Shown in pieces: positions 12,646-23,027 of a stretch of DNA of 61,470 bases. The notes beneath the pieces were generated by a model. That model did no database searches, was not told the DNA's origin, and worked only from the letters and a program-made list of their open reading frames with translations. This DNA is from a virus. The position numbers and the translations under genes were made by a program. Numbering within the stretch: position 1 is the stretch's first letter; each line of letters opens with the position of its first letter. Location of the stretch: the IMG/VR virus record IMGVR_UViG_3300037755_000302; one strand, written 5' to 3'.

Positions 12646-13449
12646 TTAGAAGCGGTAGTTCAGGCCAGCCTTGATGATCTGAAGTTCGAGATCAGGATGG
12701 AAATTGTCCGTGGCGTGATCACCGGAATAGCGGTAATCAACTTCGCCGAGGTCGATGTAGAGATACTCACCGACGAGGCTGACGCTCTCGGTCAGTTTCC
12801 ATTCCAGACCGCCACCGACTGTCCAGCCAATGTGATTTTCATCAGCGCTGGCGAAGGACGCCGATTCCGTGACCTTGCCGACATCGTGGATGGAGTTGAC
12901 GGAAGACTCGACCATCGCCCAAGCCAGACCGCCGGTCGCATACGCCAGAAGGCTCGGCTGAACCAGATAGCCAGCACGAAGGCGAGCGGTGCCGAAATAT
13001 TCGATTTCTGTAGTGGCGTCCCAGACCGGATTTCCTTTATTGTCAGGGTCCAGTCCGACAGGATAAGGAACGAAACGCTCAGTGCTGCTCAGGTCGCCGT
13101 AAGCTACGTCAATGACGCCGCCGAGAACGACATTGCCGAACTGCTTATCAGCGCCAAAACCTATGCCGCCGAACCAGTCCTCGTCACCAATGTTCTGACT
13201 GGAGCCGTCAAAGGTGATCGCCGGGTATTTCTTCGCGTCGTCATACGAGAACGGTCCATCCCAATCGGCCCATGCCCATCCGCCGAAAACGCCGAAGTGC
13301 AATCCGGTCCAGTCTGCCGACGTGTGCACGGGCTGGTCAGCGCTCTGATCAAGGACGCCATCCAGAAGGTCCGAAGCGTTTGCAGATGCAGCCAGAGCGA
13401 AAAAACTCGCGGCGAGGATCGGAACTGTGTTGATTTTGAGACGTGTCAT
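12646..13449 (-). CDS. outer-membrane beta-barrel protein, Omp25/Omp31 (OMP_b-brl) type, with signal peptide
   Basis: Signal peptide ILAASFFALAASANA, alternating beta-strand pattern, and C-terminal ...IKAGLNYRF ending in aromatic Phe. Confidence 0.8.
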   Translation of the reverse strand: MTRLKINTVPILAASFFALAASANASDLLDGVLDQSADQPVHTSADWTGLHFGVFGGWAWADWDGPFSYDDAKKYPAITFDGSSQNIGDEDWFGGIGFGADKQFGNVVLGGVIDVAYGDLSSTERFVPYPVGLDPDNKGNPVWDATTEIEYFGTARLRAGYLVQPSLLAYATGGLAWAMVESSVNSIHDVGKVTESASFASADENHIGWTVGGGLEWKLTESVSLVGEYLYIDLGEVDYRYSGDHATDNFHPDLELQIIKAGLNYRF

Positions 13450-13540: not shown

Positions 13541-13738
13541 TCAGGCGGATGTGCCTGCCTTCCGCCATTTCTGTTTCGGAGATTTAAGAGCCTGCAACCG
13601 CGCGTTCACCGGCATCCTCGCCAGTTCCGTTTCAACGTCCCGCTCAAGCCGGATTATGTTTCCAGCCTCGTCTTCATAGGCGATAGAGGGGTTTCCGTTG
13701 ACGATGACGCGCTTTGCGTTTGGGGGGAGCTTTTTCAT
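13541..13738 (-). CDS. hypothetical protein, 65 aa
   Basis: 4-nt overlap with the upstream HNH gene. Confidence 0.55.
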   Translation of the reverse strand: MKKLPPNAKRVIVNGNPSIAYEDEAGNIIRLERDVETELARMPVNARLQALKSPKQKWRKAGTSA

Positions 13739-14133
13739 GCTGCCATCCCGACCGCGCGTTTGATGCGCTTCTCAGCCCGCTCTATACGGGTGTTAAGACG
13801 ACGGCGAACCCATGCGGCGGTGATGCCGGTGTCGCCAAGCGGAATATCGTTCTGATGCAGGATGCGGCGGAACCAGGCTGGCGAGCCGTTCGACTTCGCG
13901 GCATTGCAGGCAAAGCACGCGGCCTTGATGTTCTCTCGGACAGTCTGGCCGCCCTTCGAGCGCGGCGTCAGATGCTCGGCAGTGGCGACGGTCATCCGCT
14001 CCTTGCAGTAGACGCAACGGGATTTCTGCTCGATCTTGGCGTCGGAGCGCAGCATCTTGAGGAACATGCGCTCGGTCGCAGCCATGCGGTGCGGCGTGGC
14101 GTGGACGTGCTTGGAAGAGGTCTTTGCTCTCAT
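13735..14133 (-). CDS. HNH endonuclease
   Basis: CVYCKERMTVATAEHLTPRSKGG...AACFACNAAKSN. Confidence 0.8.
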   Translation of the reverse strand: MRAKTSSKHVHATPHRMAATERMFLKMLRSDAKIEQKSRCVYCKERMTVATAEHLTPRSKGGQTVRENIKAACFACNAAKSNGSPAWFRRILHQNDIPLGDTGITAAWVRRRLNTRIERAEKRIKRAVGMAA

Positions 14134-14324
14134 GCTGCGAGCCTCCGGCGCTTTTTGCGCGGACCGCGAAGCTCATGCAGAGCGTTATAGACAGCCGCTT
14201 CAGTCGCCCCCATGATCGACTTGATTTCGCCAGTGTCCTTGCCTTCGTTCCATAGGCGGAGAGCTTCTTCGCGCTCGCTGCTGTGGAGCAGGGTTTTCAG
14301 GTTGGATAGACGCCGGTCGGTCAT
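14130..14324 (-). CDS. small HTH protein resembling the GcrA N-terminal DNA-binding domain (64 aa from ATG 14324)
   Basis: SEREEALRLWNEGKDTGEIKSIMGATEAAVYNALHELRG followed by a basic tail. ATGA overlap with the upstream ORF. The ORF-track start (TTG 14402) is rejected. Confidence 0.55.
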   Translation of the reverse strand: MTDRRLSNLKTLLHSSEREEALRLWNEGKDTGEIKSIMGATEAAVYNALHELRGPRKKRRRLAA

Positions 14325-14560
14325 GCCGCCCTCTTCATCGGAAGTTTGTCGCGAGACACAGGCGGGCAGCCGGAATACGCCAGAGCGCTGTGAAAGCTGC
14401 AATATGAGCTTCCCGACACTCTGTCGTGGCCGCAGAATTTATGGGGCGGCTCGCCCGTAACCGGCCAGCGGCACATCTGCTCAGTGAGATCGAGCAACGG
14501 GATCATCAGCGGAGCCGGAGCGCCATCGGCGATTTGCTTTTTCGGTTTCCATCCAGCCAT
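14321..14560 (-). CDS. GcrA C-terminal-domain-like protein (79 aa from ATG 14560)
   Basis: LLDLTEQMCRWPVTGEPPHKFCGHDRVSGSSYCSFHSALAY matches the conserved GcrA C-terminal signature as I remember it. The upstream 100 codons of the ORF-track form look non-coding. Confidence 0.6.
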   Translation of the reverse strand: MAGWKPKKQIADGAPAPLMIPLLDLTEQMCRWPVTGEPPHKFCGHDRVSGSSYCSFHSALAYSGCPPVSRDKLPMKRAA

Positions 14561-14580: not shown

Positions 14581-14611
14581 GGTCCCCGACCGATGGGGGC
14601 AGTCGGGGACC
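14581..14611. promoter_or_regulatory. perfect 10-bp-stem hairpin GGTCCCCGAC-(11 nt)-GTCGGGGACC
   Basis: Read directly from the sequence. Located in the 218-bp gap between the HNH gene and the GcrA-like pair, with no clear U-tract. Confidence 0.5.
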
Positions 14612-14777: not shown

Positions 14778-15314
14778 TTAGGCGGTAGCCAAACACTGCC
14801 TCGCCTTGCGAATGACCTCTTGGTAGTAGTGCCAAGAGAAGGTTTCCTTCCTCGGGTCATTCGGATTCAGGTAATCAAAATCTATGCCAATGGGTGCGAA
14901 CCAGTACATTTGGTTAATCGGAGCAACGCCGGAAACGAGTGCACTGATAAGACGCGAATTCCGTCCGTACTTTTCCATGTGTCCCGGCTGTTTCAGGAAA
15001 TCCCAAACGCCGATAACTCGCATCCAGTTCAGTTTCTTCTTGTAACGATCGACCGCATTGTCGAACGCAGTGCCGAGAAACAGATGAAACGGGTTCACAC
15101 ACCTTTTGTTGTCACAGTCATGGCAGACGAAAATGCCTTCTGGGATCGGTCCCCAATGCATAGTCCATGAAAACCTGTGAGCAAGATGACTGCGAAACTG
15201 ACCATATTCTGAGGCCTCGCCCAGTTTTTTCCAGTTCCAGCAACCAGTCTCAGGATCGATTTCCATCCTTGACTTGAAGTCGTCCTGTATGTTCTGCGCG
15301 GTCTGCATCGTCAT
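14778..15314 (-). CDS. HNH-family homing-endonuclease-like protein
   Basis: CWNWK...HRFSWTMHWGPIPEGIFVCHDCDNKRCVNPFHLFLGT..DN. Visibly AT-richer than the flanks. Confidence 0.75.
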   Translation of the reverse strand: MTMQTAQNIQDDFKSRMEIDPETGCWNWKKLGEASEYGQFRSHLAHRFSWTMHWGPIPEGIFVCHDCDNKRCVNPFHLFLGTAFDNAVDRYKKKLNWMRVIGVWDFLKQPGHMEKYGRNSRLISALVSGVAPINQMYWFAPIGIDFDYLNPNDPRKETFSWHYYQEVIRKARQCLATA

Positions 15315-15316
15315 TC

Positions 15317-15562
15317 CTAAGCGGCTGCGCCCTCATGCTGGCGAATAGGCCTGTCAGAGCTGCGCGCCATCAAATTCGCGTTGTAGATCTGATCGACGGA
15401 GACCTTCGCCAGCGTCATGATCAGATCCCAGTACTCATCCGGTATGCCGTTCTTGTTCCACTTGTAGATGGCCCAATGCGTCCGCCCGACTTTCTTCGAA
15501 AGCTCTACGGGTCCGCCGCAACGCTGGACAATCTGCTGGCATGTGAGAATGTGATTTGACAT
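15317..15562 (-). CDS. Cro-like DNA-binding protein
   Basis: 81 aa, divergent from the repressor gene. HTH-like ELSKKVGRTHWAIYKWNKNGIP. Confidence 0.7.
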   Translation of the reverse strand: MSNHILTCQQIVQRCGGPVELSKKVGRTHWAIYKWNKNGIPDEYWDLIMTLAKVSVDQIYNANLMARSSDRPIRQHEGAAA

Positions 15563-15570
15563 TTCATGGC

Positions 15571-15600
15571 ATTATATTGGACTATAATTCCAAAGATCAA
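15571..15600 (-). promoter_or_regulatory. PR-like sigma70 promoter for the cro-like gene (TTGATC-18 nt-TATAAT)
   Basis: The -10 is a perfect TATAAT ending 8 nt before the cro ATG, implying a near-leaderless mRNA. The operator 15577-15593 lies in the spacer. Confidence 0.5.
15577..15593. promoter_or_regulatory. operator-like palindrome TTGGA-N7-TCCAA (copy 1)
   Basis: The same half-sites and 7-nt spacing recur at 16343-16359 and 16383-16399. Confidence 0.55.
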
Positions 15601-15648
15601 GCGTTTTTTTCCAGTGCCCTGCCTGTGATCTCCATTATTGTGGAAATC

Positions 15649-16308
15649 ATGAGATGGCATGAACGCATGGTAAGATTGATGAACGAGAGGGGGTGGTCAC
15701 AGACAGTGCTCGCCGAGCGCTCTGGCATCCCCTATCACCAGATAACGAAATACGCGCGCGGCGCTGTGGATCAGCCGCGCGGGAACACTATAAGTAAAAT
15801 TGCTGAAGCTCTGGATGTATCAGAACAGTTTCTGATCTTTGGGGTTGATAACGCAGATAAATTATTCAATTATGACAAGTTGCCCAATGTAGAAGAAAGC
15901 TTGCGCGTCCCGAAAGTTACACTGAAAGACCTGTCTAATTATAAAGCGGGACACGATATTCTAAGCATCTGGTCTGGGGACATGAGCACACCAATCGATC
16001 GGGCGCATAGCGCGTCCTGTTTTACCGTCGATGTTGATGATAACAGCATGCTGCCGCAATTCTCGGTTGGCGACACCTTGCTTTGTGACCCGGAAGCCAC
16101 AATAGAACCAGGCGATTACGTCCTTGCCATCGCAAATGGCAGCGATAAGGCCGTATTCAGGAAGTATCGCCTTGCGAAGGCCGCTGGCAACGGCACACCG
16201 AGGATCGAGCTTCGCCCCCTGAATGCCGATTACCCCATTGACCTGATCGACACCGACCACCCCGGACGGATCATCTGTCGCTGCATGGCGGTCATCAAGA
16301 ACCTGTAG
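15649..16308 (+). CDS. CI-type repressor (XRE HTH plus S24 LexA-like autopeptidase)
   Basis: HTH GWSQTVLAERSGIPYHQITKYARG. S24 motifs DDNSMLPQFSVGD (Ser) and VFRKYRL (Lys). The start may be ATG 15649 or ATG 15667. Confidence 0.85.
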   Translation: MRWHERMVRLMNERGWSQTVLAERSGIPYHQITKYARGAVDQPRGNTISKIAEALDVSEQFLIFGVDNADKLFNYDKLPNVEESLRVPKVTLKDLSNYKAGHDILSIWSGDMSTPIDRAHSASCFTVDVDDNSMLPQFSVGDTLLCDPEATIEPGDYVLAIANGSDKAVFRKYRLAKAAGNGTPRIELRPLNADYPIDLIDTDHPGRIICRCMAVIKNL

Positions 16309-16342
16309 CGGAAATATCACCGAATCACCCTCTGTAAATAAA

Positions 16343-16359
16343 TTGGATTAAAATTCCAA
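16343..16359. promoter_or_regulatory. operator-like palindrome TTGGA-N7-TCCAA (copy 2)
   Basis: aaTTGGAttaaaatTCCAAtt, just upstream of the -35 of the PL-like promoter. Confidence 0.55.
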
Positions 16360-16366
16360 TTCCCAC

Positions 16367-16395
16367 TTGACGCGCCCTTTGAATGGAATTAAATT
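16367..16395 (+). promoter_or_regulatory. PL-like sigma70 promoter (TTGACG-17 nt-TAAATT)
   Basis: Hexamers and spacing read directly from the sequence. Flanked and overlapped by two operator palindromes. Confidence 0.55.
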
Positions 16396-16399
16396 CCAA
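16383..16399. promoter_or_regulatory. operator-like palindrome ATGGA-N7-TCCAA (copy 3)
   Basis: Overlaps the -10 hexamer of the PL-like promoter. Confidence 0.5.
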
Positions 16400-16491
16400 T
16401 TCATCAGCCGCCCCCAATCGGCTGAACCGCAAACCCCGGACCTCGCCCCTGAAGCTTGGTCCGGGTCCAAAGAGCAAAAGGGTCAAACGCC

Positions 16492-17118
16492 GTGGAATTC
16501 AAAATCACAAATCGATTTACCGGCTCAGTGATCTTCACGGCTAAAATCGAAGCCACCGAAGATACGCCGATCAGCATCAAATTAGGCTTGGCAGTGAAGA
16601 AGGCTGTTGAAGCGCGTGCCTACCTCGCGGATGCCAACCTCGCGGATGCCAACCTCGCGGGTGCCAACCTCGCGGGTGCCTACCTCGCGGGTGCCAACCT
16701 CGCGGGTGCCAACCTCGAGGATGCCAACCTCGCGGGTGCCAACCTCGCGGGTGCCTACCTCGCGGATGCCAACCTCGCGGATGCCAACCTCGCGGGTGCC
16801 TACCTCGCGGGTGCCAAAGACATTCCCGATTTCACCATGCCAGACGGCCTGAAGTTCAGCCAGTACAAGCGCGAAGTTGTTCCCGCACTGCTGACCGCTG
16901 GCGGCAAGACGCTGGATGAGATCAAGGAGTCCGGTTGTTGGGATTGCCACGACTGGACCAACTGCCCGATGGCGCACGCTTTCAACGTCAGGACGATTGA
17001 AGAAATCCCGCCGCTGTATCGGGCGCGGGCGAAGGAATTCATTCAGTTTTTTGATAGTCGCTTGCTGCCTGCTCCGTGGGCAGATGGAAGCGTTGAATCA
17101 GAGCCTGCACCGGAATAA
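16492..17118 (+). CDS. pentapeptide-repeat protein (208 aa from GTG 16492; the ORF track starts at TTG 16456)
   Basis: 13 consecutive A(N/Y)LA(D/G) pentapeptides, N-terminal [14 protein letters not shown] and a Cys/His C-terminal domain ([17 protein letters not shown]). Confidence 0.85.
16618..16812 (+). repeat. tandem 15-bp repeat, 13 units (GCC-WAC-CTC-GCG-GRT), in-frame within the pentapeptide gene
   Basis: Units differ only at 1-2 positions: aac/tac, ggt/gat, and one gag. Confidence 0.9.
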
Positions 17119-17163
17119 CCGAACTCTCTGCCTCCTCCCTCAGTAATGGAAGAGAGCAACTAA

Positions 17164-17204
17164 GCCCCAGCCATTTCCGCCGTGATCGGCTGGGGCGCTT
17201 TTTT
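17164..17204 (+). terminator. rho-independent terminator
   Basis: 9-bp stem GCCCCAGCC/GGCTGGGGC with a 15-nt loop, followed by GCTTTTTT. Starts 45 nt after the pentapeptide gene stop. Confidence 0.7.
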
Positions 17205-17219
17205 AAACAGGGGATTGAA

Positions 17220-17771
17220 ATGGAACTCGATAAGAAGCGCATTGAAGACGCCATCATTGCCGATGTGGCCGATAAAATCATCGGCGAAGATGAGCTTTTC
17301 TCCCGTGTCAGGAAGGCGATCGATCAACGCATCAACGCTCTGTTCAAGGACAAAGCCGATGCGCAGATTGCGGCGGCAATCGATGATGCGATCCGCAACG
17401 GTTTCGACCGCGAATATTGCCGCATCTCTTCATGGGGTGAACGGCAAGGTGAGCCGACCACAATCCGCAAGGAACTTGAAAAGCTGATCAGCGGCTACTG
17501 GAACGAGAAGGTAGATCGTCAAGGGAAGCCTGCTGACTATCCAAGCACTAATGTTACGCGCGCCGAATGGCTGATGATGCAGCTCGTCGCGAACGATTTC
17601 AAAGACGACATGAAACAGCATGTTGTCAACGTCACGGCTGGTCTCAAGGACGGACTGCGCAACGAACTCCACAAGACCGTCAATCAACTTCTTAGCGGCA
17701 CATTCCATGTCAAGAGCCTCGACGATCAGAAGCTCGACAACGGATACAGCCCGCATCCGAAAGCGGAATAA
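17220..17771 (+). CDS. hypothetical protein, 183 aa
   Basis: ATG follows GGGGATTGAA. Protein-like composition. Confidence 0.65.
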   Translation: MELDKKRIEDAIIADVADKIIGEDELFSRVRKAIDQRINALFKDKADAQIAAAIDDAIRNGFDREYCRISSWGERQGEPTTIRKELEKLISGYWNEKVDRQGKPADYPSTNVTRAEWLMMQLVANDFKDDMKQHVVNVTAGLKDGLRNELHKTVNQLLSGTFHVKSLDDQKLDNGYSPHPKAE

Positions 17772-17804
17772 GCAAAAAGCCAATTTAAACAGAGGACTGA
17801 TTAA

Positions 17805-18353
17805 ATGATTCCTGCACCGAGAGTTGATGTCTCCTCCCCATCGGACGCCTCTCAGGCAGATGCGGGCCAGCTACAAGAAGCCGATTACAAGACTTGGCTG
17901 GTCCGCAAATATGATCGGTGCATCGAGAAATTCGCCGATGATGCCGAGTTCGTCTCTATCGCGCTGTTCGCCGCTGCTCCTGTTGCGCTGGCTACCGGAA
18001 CGGCGCTGACGACGGGTCATCCCTTCTGGATGCTGACGATCCCGCTATCCGGCTTCTGGTGCTACTGCACCGCGATGATCAGCGTCATCTCCTACCGTGA
18101 GAAGATCGCCGAGCGCGACGAGCGCATCAAGGAAATCAACGATAGCGCACTCTGGCGTCTTTGTGAATCTCGCCGGGAGCAGTGCGACAAGCTCATGGCT
18201 GAAAACAGCCATCTCGAACAGGACGTGGCTCATTGGAAAGCTCTTTGCTTTACCCAGCGGGGTAGCGGGGGCGCGGCGGCGGGTTCCGAATTTGGCGGAC
18301 TATCTCGGAAACCTGCCGCCGTTGTTCCTTTCAAGACAGATGGAGCGGCTTAG
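17805..18353 (+). CDS. membrane protein with coiled-coil tail, 182 aa
   Basis: Two hydrophobic helices (FVSIALFAAAPVALATG, LSGFWCYCTAMISVISY) followed by a heptad-like segment. Confidence 0.65.
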   Translation: MIPAPRVDVSSPSDASQADAGQLQEADYKTWLVRKYDRCIEKFADDAEFVSIALFAAAPVALATGTALTTGHPFWMLTIPLSGFWCYCTAMISVISYREKIAERDERIKEINDSALWRLCESRREQCDKLMAENSHLEQDVAHWKALCFTQRGSGGAAAGSEFGGLSRKPAAVVPFKTDGAA

Positions 18354-18355
18354 CC

Positions 18356-18640
18356 ATGAGCGAATTGGTCAAATGCGCGGTTAGCCACCTTCCTGCTGGT
18401 CACCCGAACGCTTGCGGCGATTGCGATCCCTGCATCGTGCACGACCGCCCGAAGCAGCTCGAAGCGCTCTATGTGGACTGGGAGCACATGTACTGGAACA
18501 TCAAATCTCTCATGAACTCCGCACAAGCCGCGAGCTATGCGCTGAAAAGCTACGAATACGGTAATTCGTCACCGGAGCTTGCACAAGAGGTGATCGTGGC
18601 GCTTGAAGCAGCACTAGCCAAAGCAAGAGGCGAGCAATGA
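18356..18640 (+). CDS. hypothetical protein, 94 aa
   Basis: Packed in the plus-strand operon. Confidence 0.6.
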   Translation: MSELVKCAVSHLPAGHPNACGDCDPCIVHDRPKQLEALYVDWEHMYWNIKSLMNSAQAASYALKSYEYGNSSPELAQEVIVALEAALAKARGEQ

Positions 18641-18975: not shown

Positions 18976-19178
18976 CCTCAGACCGCGAACGCAAGCTCAA
19001 ATTCATCGCCGAAGCTGGCTTCACCGATCTCCGCAAGAGCGTCATCGAAATGCTCTCAAGGCGCGGCCCCGATTGGCTCACCGACGATCAGATCGACGAT
19101 CTTTATAGAGCAGAAGCCGCTGCCTGGGAACGGGCGCAGAGGAGGAATGCAGAGAACCGGGAAAGGGTGGCAGGATGA
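18972..19178 (+). CDS. hypothetical protein (68 aa from ATG 18972)
   Basis: ATGA overlap with the upstream stop. Confidence 0.55.
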   Translation: MTSDRERKLKFIAEAGFTDLRKSVIEMLSRRGPDWLTDDQIDDLYRAEAAAWERAQRRNAENRERVAG

Positions 19179-19849
19179 AGATCGAAGACCTCAAAAAGTT
19201 CTGCGAAAACGATCGGTATAGACCGTACCTCTCTAACCCGTTTTCACTTGGCGATTTTACCTATGCCACCGATGGCAAGGTTGCCGTTCGCGTGCCGCGC
19301 CTTGAAGGCATTGGCGAAGTCGAAGACGCACCGGCAAGCATAGAGACAACCTTTGCAAACAACCTTAAGGGATTTGAGCAAGCCGCGCCAGTTCCGAACC
19401 CGCCGCACGTTACCAACATTATTTGCAAGGCCTGCAAAGGCAGACAGAAGGTAACGATCTGCTCCGAGTGCGAGGGTGAAGGCTACCGAGAGTGTGACCT
19501 TGGCCACGAGCATGATTGCGAGGATTGCGACGGCAATGGCGTCATCGGCGACCGCAGCGGAGAGAGCGCGGTGGAATGCCCTGAGTGCGAAGGGGTGGGC
19601 CGCCTCCCGAATTTGCCCCAAGGGCTAAGCACCGGCGTCATCGTCAATGACAAAACCTGCGTCGGTTTGCGCTACCTGAGAAGGATTGCCACCCTTCCAG
19701 CGGTAAAGTGGAGCCTCAATCACCGCAAAGAGTCCTCGGAAACCATCCCCTTCTGGTTCGACGGCGGCGAAGGTATTCTGATGCCGATGCGCTTCTGGGA
19801 GCCGGGCGGAGGCAACTATCTCCGCGTCGATGAGGAGCGCGCAGCATGA
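19175..19849 (+). CDS. protein with four DnaJ-type CxxCxGxG zinc-finger repeats
   Basis: CKACKGRQ, CSECEGEG, CEDCDGNG and CPECEGVG, with N-terminal YATDGKVAVRVPR. Confidence 0.65.
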   Translation: MKIEDLKKFCENDRYRPYLSNPFSLGDFTYATDGKVAVRVPRLEGIGEVEDAPASIETTFANNLKGFEQAAPVPNPPHVTNIICKACKGRQKVTICSECEGEGYRECDLGHEHDCEDCDGNGVIGDRSGESAVECPECEGVGRLPNLPQGLSTGVIVNDKTCVGLRYLRRIATLPAVKWSLNHRKESSETIPFWFDGGEGILMPMRFWEPGGGNYLRVDEERAA

Positions 19850-22397: not shown

Positions 22398-23027
22398 ATG
22401 ATGGAGATCTTCGATTTTCCGCAAAATTCGCCGGAGTGGCACTCAATCCGCGCAGGCCTCGTGACGGCAAGCTGTTTCAGCCAAATATTAGCCAAGGGCC
22501 AAGGCAAAACACGCGCCTCATATTTAAGGCGCTTGGCGGCAGAAATAATCACCGGCGAGCCGCTCGAAAACTTCACCACGCCAGCGATGGAAAGAGGCCA
22601 TGCGCTCGAAGGCGAGGCGCGGAACCTGTACGCATTCATGCACGACGTTGAGCCGGTGCAGGTCGGCTTCATCCGCAACGGACGAAAAGGCTGTTCGCCG
22701 GACTCGCTTCTGGGCGAAACCGCTTTGTTGGAGATTAAGACCCAGCGCGGCGATCTGCTCATTGAGACAATGCTGAAAGACGAATTTCCGAAATGTCACG
22801 AAGCTCAAGTTCAGGGGCAACTATGGATGGCCGAAAGAGAGTGGTGTGATCTGCTGGTCTACGCACCAGGGTTCCCGCCGTTCATTAAACGCCAGCATCG
22901 CAACGAGAAATTTATCAGCGAACTGTCCGCGGCCGTCTCCGACTTCAACGCCGATTTAGACGCTCTTGTCGAGCGCATCCGCTCTTACGGCGGTCATGAG
23001 GCCCTATCGCAGGATAATGCAGCATGA
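22398..23027 (+). CDS. YqaJ / lambda-Exo-type recombination exonuclease
   Basis: SPEWHSIRAGLVTASCFSQIL...GHALEGEAR...SPDSLL...LLEIKT (PD-(D/E)xK). Confidence 0.8.
   Translation: MMEIFDFPQNSPEWHSIRAGLVTASCFSQILAKGQGKTRASYLRRLAAEIITGEPLENFTTPAMERGHALEGEARNLYAFMHDVEPVQVGFIRNGRKGCSPDSLLGETALLEIKTQRGDLLIETMLKDEFPKCHEAQVQGQLWMAEREWCDLLVYAPGFPPFIKRQHRNEKFISELSAAVSDFNADLDALVERIRSYGGHEALSQDNAA

Follow-up and report, generated by a model that had tools for sequence, protein, structure and literature searches.

The window analysed here is the whole of a 61,470-bp metagenome contig (IMG/VR virus record IMGVR_UViG_3300037755_000302), a temperate-phage genome with an integrase-like gene, the recombination genes Erf and YqaJ, and structural genes. 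Directly past its cI-type repressor gene lies a gene for a pentapeptide-repeat protein (PRP), which is the subject of this study. In window coordinates, the locus comprises the following features:

15577-15593, no strand: operator palindrome TTGGACTATAATTCCAA, OR-like, in the cI-cro intergenic region
15652-16308, plus strand: cI-type repressor gene, ATG start, with HTH_3 and Peptidase_S24 domains (Pfam)
16343-16359, no strand: OL-distal operator TTGGATTAAAATTCCAA, ending 8 bp upstream of the −35 hexamer
16367-16395, plus strand: PL-type promoter TTGACG-17-TAAATT
16383-16399, no strand: OL-proximal operator ATGGAATTAAATTCCAA, overlapping the −10 hexamer
16404-16425, plus strand: leader hairpin 1, at the transcript's predicted 5' end, with the C-rich loop CCCCCAAU
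16435-16465, plus strand: leader hairpin 2, with an 8-bp stem and a 15-nt loop
16476-16494, plus strand: junction and ribosome-binding motif AAAGGGTCAA with the GTG start
16492-17118, plus strand: PRP cargo gene, GTG start, 208 aa, pI 4.7
16612-16817, plus strand: 15-bp tandem DNA repeat (13.7 copies, 91% matches), encoding the predicted PRP beta-helix
16813-17076, plus strand: conserved C-terminal domain, with motifs including x-C-H-x-W-x-N-C-P-M, R-x-R and F-F-D
17119-17161, plus strand: conserved 3' slot junction TAACCGAAC...CTCCTCCC
17164-17204, plus strand: intrinsic terminator GCCCCAGCC...GGCTGGGGC followed by U6, in a tL1-like position
17220-17771, plus strand: next early-left gene, phrog_14855 (function unknown), 15 nt past the terminator

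Promoter, leader and terminator form a PL backbone, and the PRP gene is an exchangeable cargo in its first-gene slot, because two related phages (L171 and L172) keep the same promoter, leader and terminator around unrelated genes. The protein itself joins a pentapeptide-repeat rod to a C-terminal domain that is undescribed.

The PL-type operon and its first-gene slot

The 17-bp palindrome TTGGAnTnnAATTCCAA occurs at three sites, one between cro and cI and two just past cI. With up to two mismatches, its pattern yields 7 strand-matches in the window against 0.39 expected, a count that none of 100 shuffles reached; six of the seven are the three operator sites counted on both strands. The two sites past cI flank the promoter, the proximal one lying over its −10 hexamer, an arrangement of the PL/OL type, with a predicted transcript 5' end near 16402. 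The distal operator and both promoter hexamers are identical in L001, L171 and L172. With the three operator sites and the hexamers found, the operator-flanked promoter that the initial annotation had placed directly past cI is borne out, and so is the position of the PRP gene, which is the first one behind a PL-type promoter that adjoins the repressor gene and is controlled by operators.

The two-hairpin leader proposed in the same annotation was likewise recovered as a prediction. Together, its hairpins fold at −30.1 kcal/mol (z = −5.1), and none of 200 shuffles folds as well. Hairpin 2 is kept in four phages, with one compensatory change of a G-C to an A-U pair and one G-U pair; at the position of hairpin 1 the relatives have a different hairpin with compensatory outer pairs, the structure being kept. 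A scan with a generic hairpin pattern mainly picked up unrelated palindromes.

Behind the gene, the terminator has a G+C-rich stem of 9-12 bp, and its hairpin folds at −20.3 kcal/mol. No other canonical terminator on a coding strand of the 61-kb window ranks above it, in agreement with the strong intrinsic terminator first noted there; a simple scan overlooked it, since the loop exceeds 8 nt. We found no promoter between the terminator and the gene at 17220, a homologue of which also follows the terminator in L171, and none for the early genes further on, among them Erf and YqaJ, so that some read-through mechanism is likely. Since the cargo varies, this mechanism cannot depend on it.

At the protein level, the repressor of the window is 97% identical to those of L169 and L170 and 74% identical to those of L171 and L172. 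The latter two phages share with the window the operators, the promoter hexamers, the two-hairpin leader and the terminator stem (GCCCCAGCC/GGCTGGG(GC) followed by T6; 4835-4880 in L171, 4396-4441 in L172), which in both stands behind other cargo: 74-aa and 66-aa open reading frames (ORFs) in L171 and a 139-aa Cys-rich protein (phrog_22771) in L172, all unrelated to the PRP. Each first-slot cargo gene in the three phages is preceded by AAAGGGTCAA, with the start codon 4-5 nt further on (window 16476-16494; L171 4333-4349 and 4577-4593; L172 3919-3935). This motif may be a joint for cargo-gene exchange. The 3' junction of the slot is kept in relatives as well.

A different situation is found in the closest relative, L001 (equivalent to L003 and L004), which over cro, cI, PL and the whole PRP gene has DNA 93% identical to that of the window. 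It keeps the PRP gene without the terminator and without the phrog_14855 gene, in place of which it has a 125-bp tRNA-like fragment. The initial annotation had regarded the PRP gene and its flanking signals as a self-contained unit, a description that these relatives contradict from both sides, as L171 and L172 have promoter, leader and terminator without the PRP, and L001 has the PRP without the terminator. The gene is thus a cassette in a fixed slot rather than an autonomous transcription unit. It resembles a moron in being an exchangeable, non-essential gene between a promoter and a terminator, but differs in that the promoter is PL itself, that leader and terminator stay when the cargo changes, and that the L001 copy does without the terminator.

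Two genes downstream of its PRP, L001 carries a Lar restriction-alleviation gene. The tRNA-like fragment (L001 7031-7155) has a T-arm, GAAGGTTCGAAGCCTTC, and the 3' end ...CCGCTCACCA; ARAGORN did not call it a tRNA.

The layout of the window resembles those of lambda, PL-nutL-N-tL1, and HK022, PL-putL-nun-tL1, in its succession of repressor, operator-controlled promoter, structured leader, first gene, terminator and promoterless early genes. It differs in that the leader has no sequence similarity to theirs and no Rfam match (both strands of 15000-18500, E up to 1), and in that blastn-short found no second leader copy in the window of the kind that makes up the putL/putR pair. It further differs in that the slot content varies between sister phages, which argues that the cargo is not an antiterminator. 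An N-like product that acts at the leader hairpins and reads through the terminator would suit the position behind PL and a hairpin leader and ahead of a terminator and promoterless early genes. We nevertheless consider it extremely unlikely. Relatives with the same leader and terminator fill the slot with unrelated genes, and family members elsewhere lie mid-operon without such leaders. Antiterminators of the N type are small basic proteins whose arginine-rich motif binds the RNA of their own nut hairpin, whereas the window protein, with a pI of 4.7, is acidic and has two Arg in its N-cap (the first 42 residues) and no arginine-rich motif. As for the leader, it would be either a put-/nut-like element or else a mere stabiliser of the mRNA 5' end.

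The initial annotation had likened the slot to that of either N or rexAB in lambda. The former comparison holds for the position, with operators and promoter between cI and the gene, whereas the latter does not, the rexAB position being between cI and OL. RexAB are encoded by two genes, for a sensor and a multi-pass membrane protein, which lie in the cI-OL interval and are transcribed with cI; the window has one soluble protein, encoded downstream of operators and promoter and without a match in PADLOC.

An exclusion or abortive-infection factor of the rex or nun type would be expressed in the prophage, from a joint cI-PRP transcript ending at the terminator. From the end of cI (stop at 16308) to the gene we found no terminator, a strong one follows the gene, and the exclusion gene nun of HK022 occupies the same slot, after PL and putL. 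Yet the promoter of the gene itself has an operator across its −10 hexamer, L001 keeps the gene but not the terminator, homologues lie deep in early operons and far from repressors, PADLOC gave no match, and the one tested phage PRP (gp60, see below) serves the infecting phage against defence. This makes an exclusion factor improbable. After induction or infection, the PRP gene would be transcribed first from the operator-controlled PL, on an mRNA opening with the two hairpins, a timing that we infer from the geometry of promoter and operators. Because there is no terminator between cI and the PRP gene, read-through from the cI transcript is possible and could provide low-level transcription in the lysogen.

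One further phage, L070 (IMGVR_UViG_2698536749_000002), has the same operators and promoter in a similar layout, with a short leader without hairpins and a different first gene. Two genes on the opposite strand (L070 2329-4819), for proteins of 356 and 484 aa, occupy the rexAB position in this phage, flanked by the cI-like gene and PL. Judged by eye from its sequence, the 484-aa protein may be membrane-associated; neither gene had a Pfam or PADLOC match. The pair is a candidate prophage defence cassette.

Architecture of the protein

We chose the GTG at 16492 as start codon from an alignment of homologue N-termini and from an AAGGG ribosome-binding site at 16478-16482; on the same evidence we rejected the TTG at 16456, given in the ORF list. 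The protein consists of an N-cap (residues 1-42), 13 repeats (43-107), a predicted four-helix C-terminal domain (about 108-195) and a disordered acidic tail. Its only Pfam match, to PF00805 (Pentapeptide) at residues 43-108 (E 1.7e-16), upholds the original description as a pentapeptide-repeat gene, and there is a match to positions 9-73 (of 151) of phrog_31567 (E 1.1e-12). The 13 units are in register and of the A(D/N)LXX type, one of them being ANLED.

An AlphaFold2 model built with 38 homologues (pLDDT 91) has one short strand per five residues over 43-108, with a beta-hairpin and a helix in the N-cap (1-42) and a four-helix domain at about 120-190. The modelled beta-helix superposes on solved PRPs with 0.4 Å rmsd over 60 residues. 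The rod is thus modelled as a right-handed quadrilateral beta-helix, the structure that the initial annotation had proposed to look for, and would have about three coils (13 repeats correspond to about 3.25).

Searches with tblastn against 50,697 GenBank phage records, using either the whole protein or the C-terminal domain alone, yielded no match. Blastn against GenBank phage records showed repeat-level similarity only, and when metagenomes were scanned with the full-length sequence, repeat patterns dominated the output and no further close relative emerged.

The rod is encoded by the 15-bp tandem array, which in the window is made up of only 5 distinct units. The array of L001 has 29.6 copies and a unit set that is almost entirely different (ADLSG, ADLAG, ANLSG and Arg-containing units), and it is even richer in Asp. 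The two proteins are 92-95% identical in N-cap and C-terminal domain, whereas they have 13 and 29 repeats, respectively, with different exposed residues. Over the first 120 database homologues, the number of repeats ranges from 3 to 29 and the charge per repeat from −0.86 to +0.54. Variation by single units is also known from the phages L and ST64T, which differ by a 15-bp indel in an early-left PRP gene (PMC8022706), and the array of gene 60 in Vibrio phage 24 was resolved by PCR and Sanger sequencing (bioRxiv 10.1101/2024.07.02.601686). Of the 31 viral contigs that encode the C-terminal domain, 10 start within the array (L006, L007, L009, L011, L012, L017, L021, L025, L028, L029). Short-read assemblies thus break in the array, and repeat counts, perhaps including the 13 of the window, are lower bounds. 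Two ORFs that overlap the array, at 16582-16977 (minus strand) and 16607-16852 (plus strand), are by-products of the tandem repeat and not genes.

In the alignment of homologues, the strongest conservation falls on residues of the C-terminal domain, not of the rod. We found no match for this domain in Pfam, PHROGs, NCBIfam or PADLOC, the sole trace being zf-CCCH with an E-value of 0.06. A zinc site formed by the Cys/His motif was rejected, given this score and the lack of conservation of the third ligand, His162. A profile search of PDB sequences returned PRPs only, plus GyrB at an E-value of about 0.5, which we treat as chance, and in Foldseek searches of PDB and BFVD with the model of the domain the best E-value was above 2. 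The family of the domain is small: clustering at 50% identity gives 256 groups in a set of 1.84 billion representative proteins. It extends over soil and water metagenomes and several bacterial phyla, and viral contigs are among its sources. The domain is C-terminal in all cases, and of 193 members 162 have at least three PRP repeats ahead of it; in the wider family, a few members have fewer repeats, and many of these appear truncated.

The initial annotation had drawn an analogy to the gyrase-targeting PRPs Qnr and MfpA. As family membership this fails: Qnr-type NCBIfam models score the protein at 13-26 bits, against cut-offs of 240-500, and MfpA at 23 against 360, besides which it has only 13 repeats and a conserved non-PRP domain. 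Qnr and MfpA form rods of about 8-10 coils, Qnr with two protruding loops; they pair tail to tail, bind gyrase and change the action of quinolones. With these proteins, AlbG and McbG, the window protein shares an acidic, right-handed quadrilateral beta-helix of A(D/N)LXX repeats, as far as the model goes, but its rod would have about three uninterrupted coils without loops, and it ends in a predicted four-helix domain instead of a short dimerising helix. The four are, moreover, chromosomal or plasmid genes of resistance or immunity, whereas the gene studied here belongs to a phage, as cargo of its early operon.

A modulator of DNA gyrase or topoisomerase IV of the Qnr/MfpA kind would be compatible with the modelled fold and the acidity, and phages do encode gyrase inhibitors, though the known ones, Igy and Gip, are unrelated peptides (PMC10886550). 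We regard this function as very unlikely, as the family models fall short by an order of magnitude, the rod has about three coils, no loops and a different C-terminal domain, and hypervariable length is unfit for a calibrated mimic of the DNA segment bound by gyrase.

The acidic rod might also be active by itself and, in the manner of Ocr and ArdA, fill the cleft with which a restriction enzyme, a BREX-type enzyme or a RexA-like one binds DNA; the C-terminal domain would then merely cap or dimerise the rod. Across about 16 Å of helix, the repeats contain 6 Asp/Glu and no Lys or Arg, the array of L001 is richer still in Asp, and most proteins of the family carry a net negative charge. DNA mimicry is accepted for MfpA and Qnr (PMC10886550), and since RexA-type sensors respond to DNA-protein complexes, a decoy would suit the precedent of phage 24 (bioRxiv 10.1101/2024.07.02.601686). 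Against this, charge per repeat extends to positive values in the family and repeat number varies as widely as described above, 13 repeats make only about three coils, and the strongly conserved residues are outside the rod. We therefore consider a DNA mimic unlikely.

A modular family and its proposed role

The N-cap and repeat type of the window protein are also found fused to at least four other C-terminal domains, namely DUF5758, on which we found no paper, TTHCRAGW, phrog_37032 and the type of Bordetella phage IFTN6, where the gene (gp49) lies downstream of the repressor. Four siblings (P0073, P0075, P0093, P0111) combine the N-cap and repeats of the window with phrog_37032. By hhalign or hmmsearch, the domain of the window is unrelated to TTHCRAGW and to the phrog_37032 and IFTN6 types. 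Beyond close relatives, family genes are not located beside a repressor gene; they lie inside same-strand early operons, with neighbours that include RecT, Erf, SMC-like ATPases, a 5'-3' exonuclease and a C5 methylase.

The phrog_37032 domain occurs in gp60 of Vibrio phage 24 (SBVc24_0060, KJ572844 12900-13322; E 2e-37) and in orf19 of phage ST104 (E 2e-73), a PRP gene of the PL operon that is flanked by ral and gene 17 and has sieB, erf and abc nearby. Among phage PRPs, gp60 alone has a phenotype on record. Deletion of gene 60 makes phage 24 highly sensitive to the RexAB-like system Sucellos, and phages that escape Sucellos carry mutations in this gene (bioRxiv 10.1101/2024.07.02.601686). The anti-Sucellos activity is reported for gp60 only.

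The window protein resembles gp60 and ST104 orf19 in having an N-cap, a homogeneous array and a C-terminal domain of about 80-100 aa, and in its location among early genes. As in gp60 and the PRPs of phages L and ST64T, the array changes in steps of 15 bp and causes difficulties in assembly; orf232 of L/ST64T is a P22-like homologue of gp60 taken from the literature alone, whereas for ST104 orf19 we checked the C-terminal domain here. The proteins differ in that gp60 and orf19 have a helical N-cap, in place of the beta-hairpin plus helix modelled for the window, and the domain phrog_37032, which the window lacks and to which the unnamed domain of the window has an hhalign probability of 0.06. 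Because the two domains are unrelated, the analogy is one of architecture and genomic setting, not of family membership.

While the anatomy of the locus, its slot, the modular family and the variation in repeat number are observations, the role of the protein has to be judged from them. We propose, as a plausible reading to which we give a little less than even weight, that it is an early accessory factor for counter-defence or for binding a host factor, and an anti-defence role is our best-supported guess. This reading draws on the status of the gene as cargo in a slot, the modularity of the family, the precedent of gp60, the gene neighbourhood, fast evolution, charge and distribution. The product would be a small acidic rod, formed by the N-cap and a beta-helix of variable length, that carries the conserved four-helix domain as a head. 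It would bind and block a host protein, most likely a component, sensor or effector, of a system for anti-phage defence or abortive infection. The head would give specificity, with the rod as scaffold and possibly as a DNA-like decoy surface.

Several points weigh against the counter-defence reading. Proteins with this C-terminal domain are known from sequence and prediction alone, and since the domain is not related to that of gp60, the precedent is one of architecture. Searches of PADLOC and of the anti-defence literature found nothing specific. The timing of expression would follow from promoter and operator geometry, and an early accessory gene would also suit many other roles, for instance in taking over the host, in controlling recombination or replication, or in deciding between lysis and lysogeny. 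Finally, the result for phage 24 comes from a preprint whose authors 'postulate' anti-defence (bioRxiv 10.1101/2024.07.02.601686).

Among such roles within the phage itself, we considered an accessory of early DNA transactions, for instance a modulator of Erf/YqaJ recombination or of replication. Family members lie beside RecT, Erf, SMC-like ATPase, exonuclease and methylase genes, and the operon of the window contains Erf and YqaJ. However, sister phages that keep the same recombination genes have swapped the PRP for unrelated genes, and we saw no fixed neighbour gene, so that this function, too, seems doubtful.

The counter-defence reading could be part of a broader pair of ideas, which we hold to be rather unlikely in combination: that the PRP is a chassis with interchangeable anti-defence heads, and that leader and terminator form an antitermination device independent of the cargo. 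If the former were true, there would be at least five types of head, each neutralising another host defence, the head of the window would be a new anti-defence domain, and slippage in the 15-bp array would tune the length or surface of the rod. If the latter were true, the device would be put-like (cis-acting) or nut-like (factor-dependent) and belong to lambdoid phages of Alphaproteobacteria.

Early operons of temperate phages repeatedly contain PRP genes, examples being P22-like phages, a Bordetella phage and Vibrio phage 24, but the roles of these genes are barely known. What is new here is the undescribed C-terminal domain on an early-operon PRP accessory protein, a class already known but poorly understood; nothing at the locus overturns current understanding. 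The repeat part of the protein is a fast-changing scaffold built from a tandem DNA repeat, and its C-terminal domain is one of several alternatives. If these alternatives are target-specific heads, they would make a ready set of candidate anti-defence domains. The layout of leader, slot and terminator offers a model of early transcription control in a lambdoid phage. Should none of this be true, the PRP gene would be just another accessory ORF.

Other genes of the early region

Further genes of the early regions are:

14321-14560, minus strand: GcrA-like gene in the rightward operon, downstream of cro
15317-15562, minus strand: cro-like gene, divergent from cI, with weak YdaS and P22_Cro matches in Pfam; conserved in L001
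20586-21338: Erf, in the same operon as the PRP gene
22398-23027: YqaJ, in the same operon as the PRP gene

A leftward promoter, TTGATC-18-TATAAT, holds the operator of the cI-cro intergenic region (15577-15593) in its spacer. As the phage has a GcrA-like gene, its host is probably an alphaproteobacterium.

A 12-bp hairpin with the loop CCCCCAU lies at 14581-14611 (minus strand), 20 nt upstream of the GcrA-like gene. The same hairpin is found in L001 (4671-4705, minus strand), with about four compensatory base-pair changes and a conserved loop. The loop of PL-leader hairpin 1 is likewise C-rich, and the placement of the hairpin upstream of the GcrA-like gene recalls nutR and nutL. We rejected the idea that the C-rich loops match within each phage in the manner of nutL and nutR: this is true for the window and L001 but fails in L171 and L172.

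The rightward early region has two HNH endonuclease genes (14778-15314 and 13735-14133, both on the minus strand), the first of which lies between cro and the GcrA-like gene, a place where L001 has none. It also encodes an outer-membrane beta-barrel protein (12646-13449, minus strand; PF13505) with an apparent N-terminal signal peptide, a candidate lysogenic-conversion gene of which L001 has a counterpart. In the early-left region, the gene at 19175-19849 (plus strand; phrog_37414) encodes DnaJ-type CxxCxGxG zinc-finger repeats, with weak Pfam matches to DnaJ_CXXCXGXG and Anti-TRAP.

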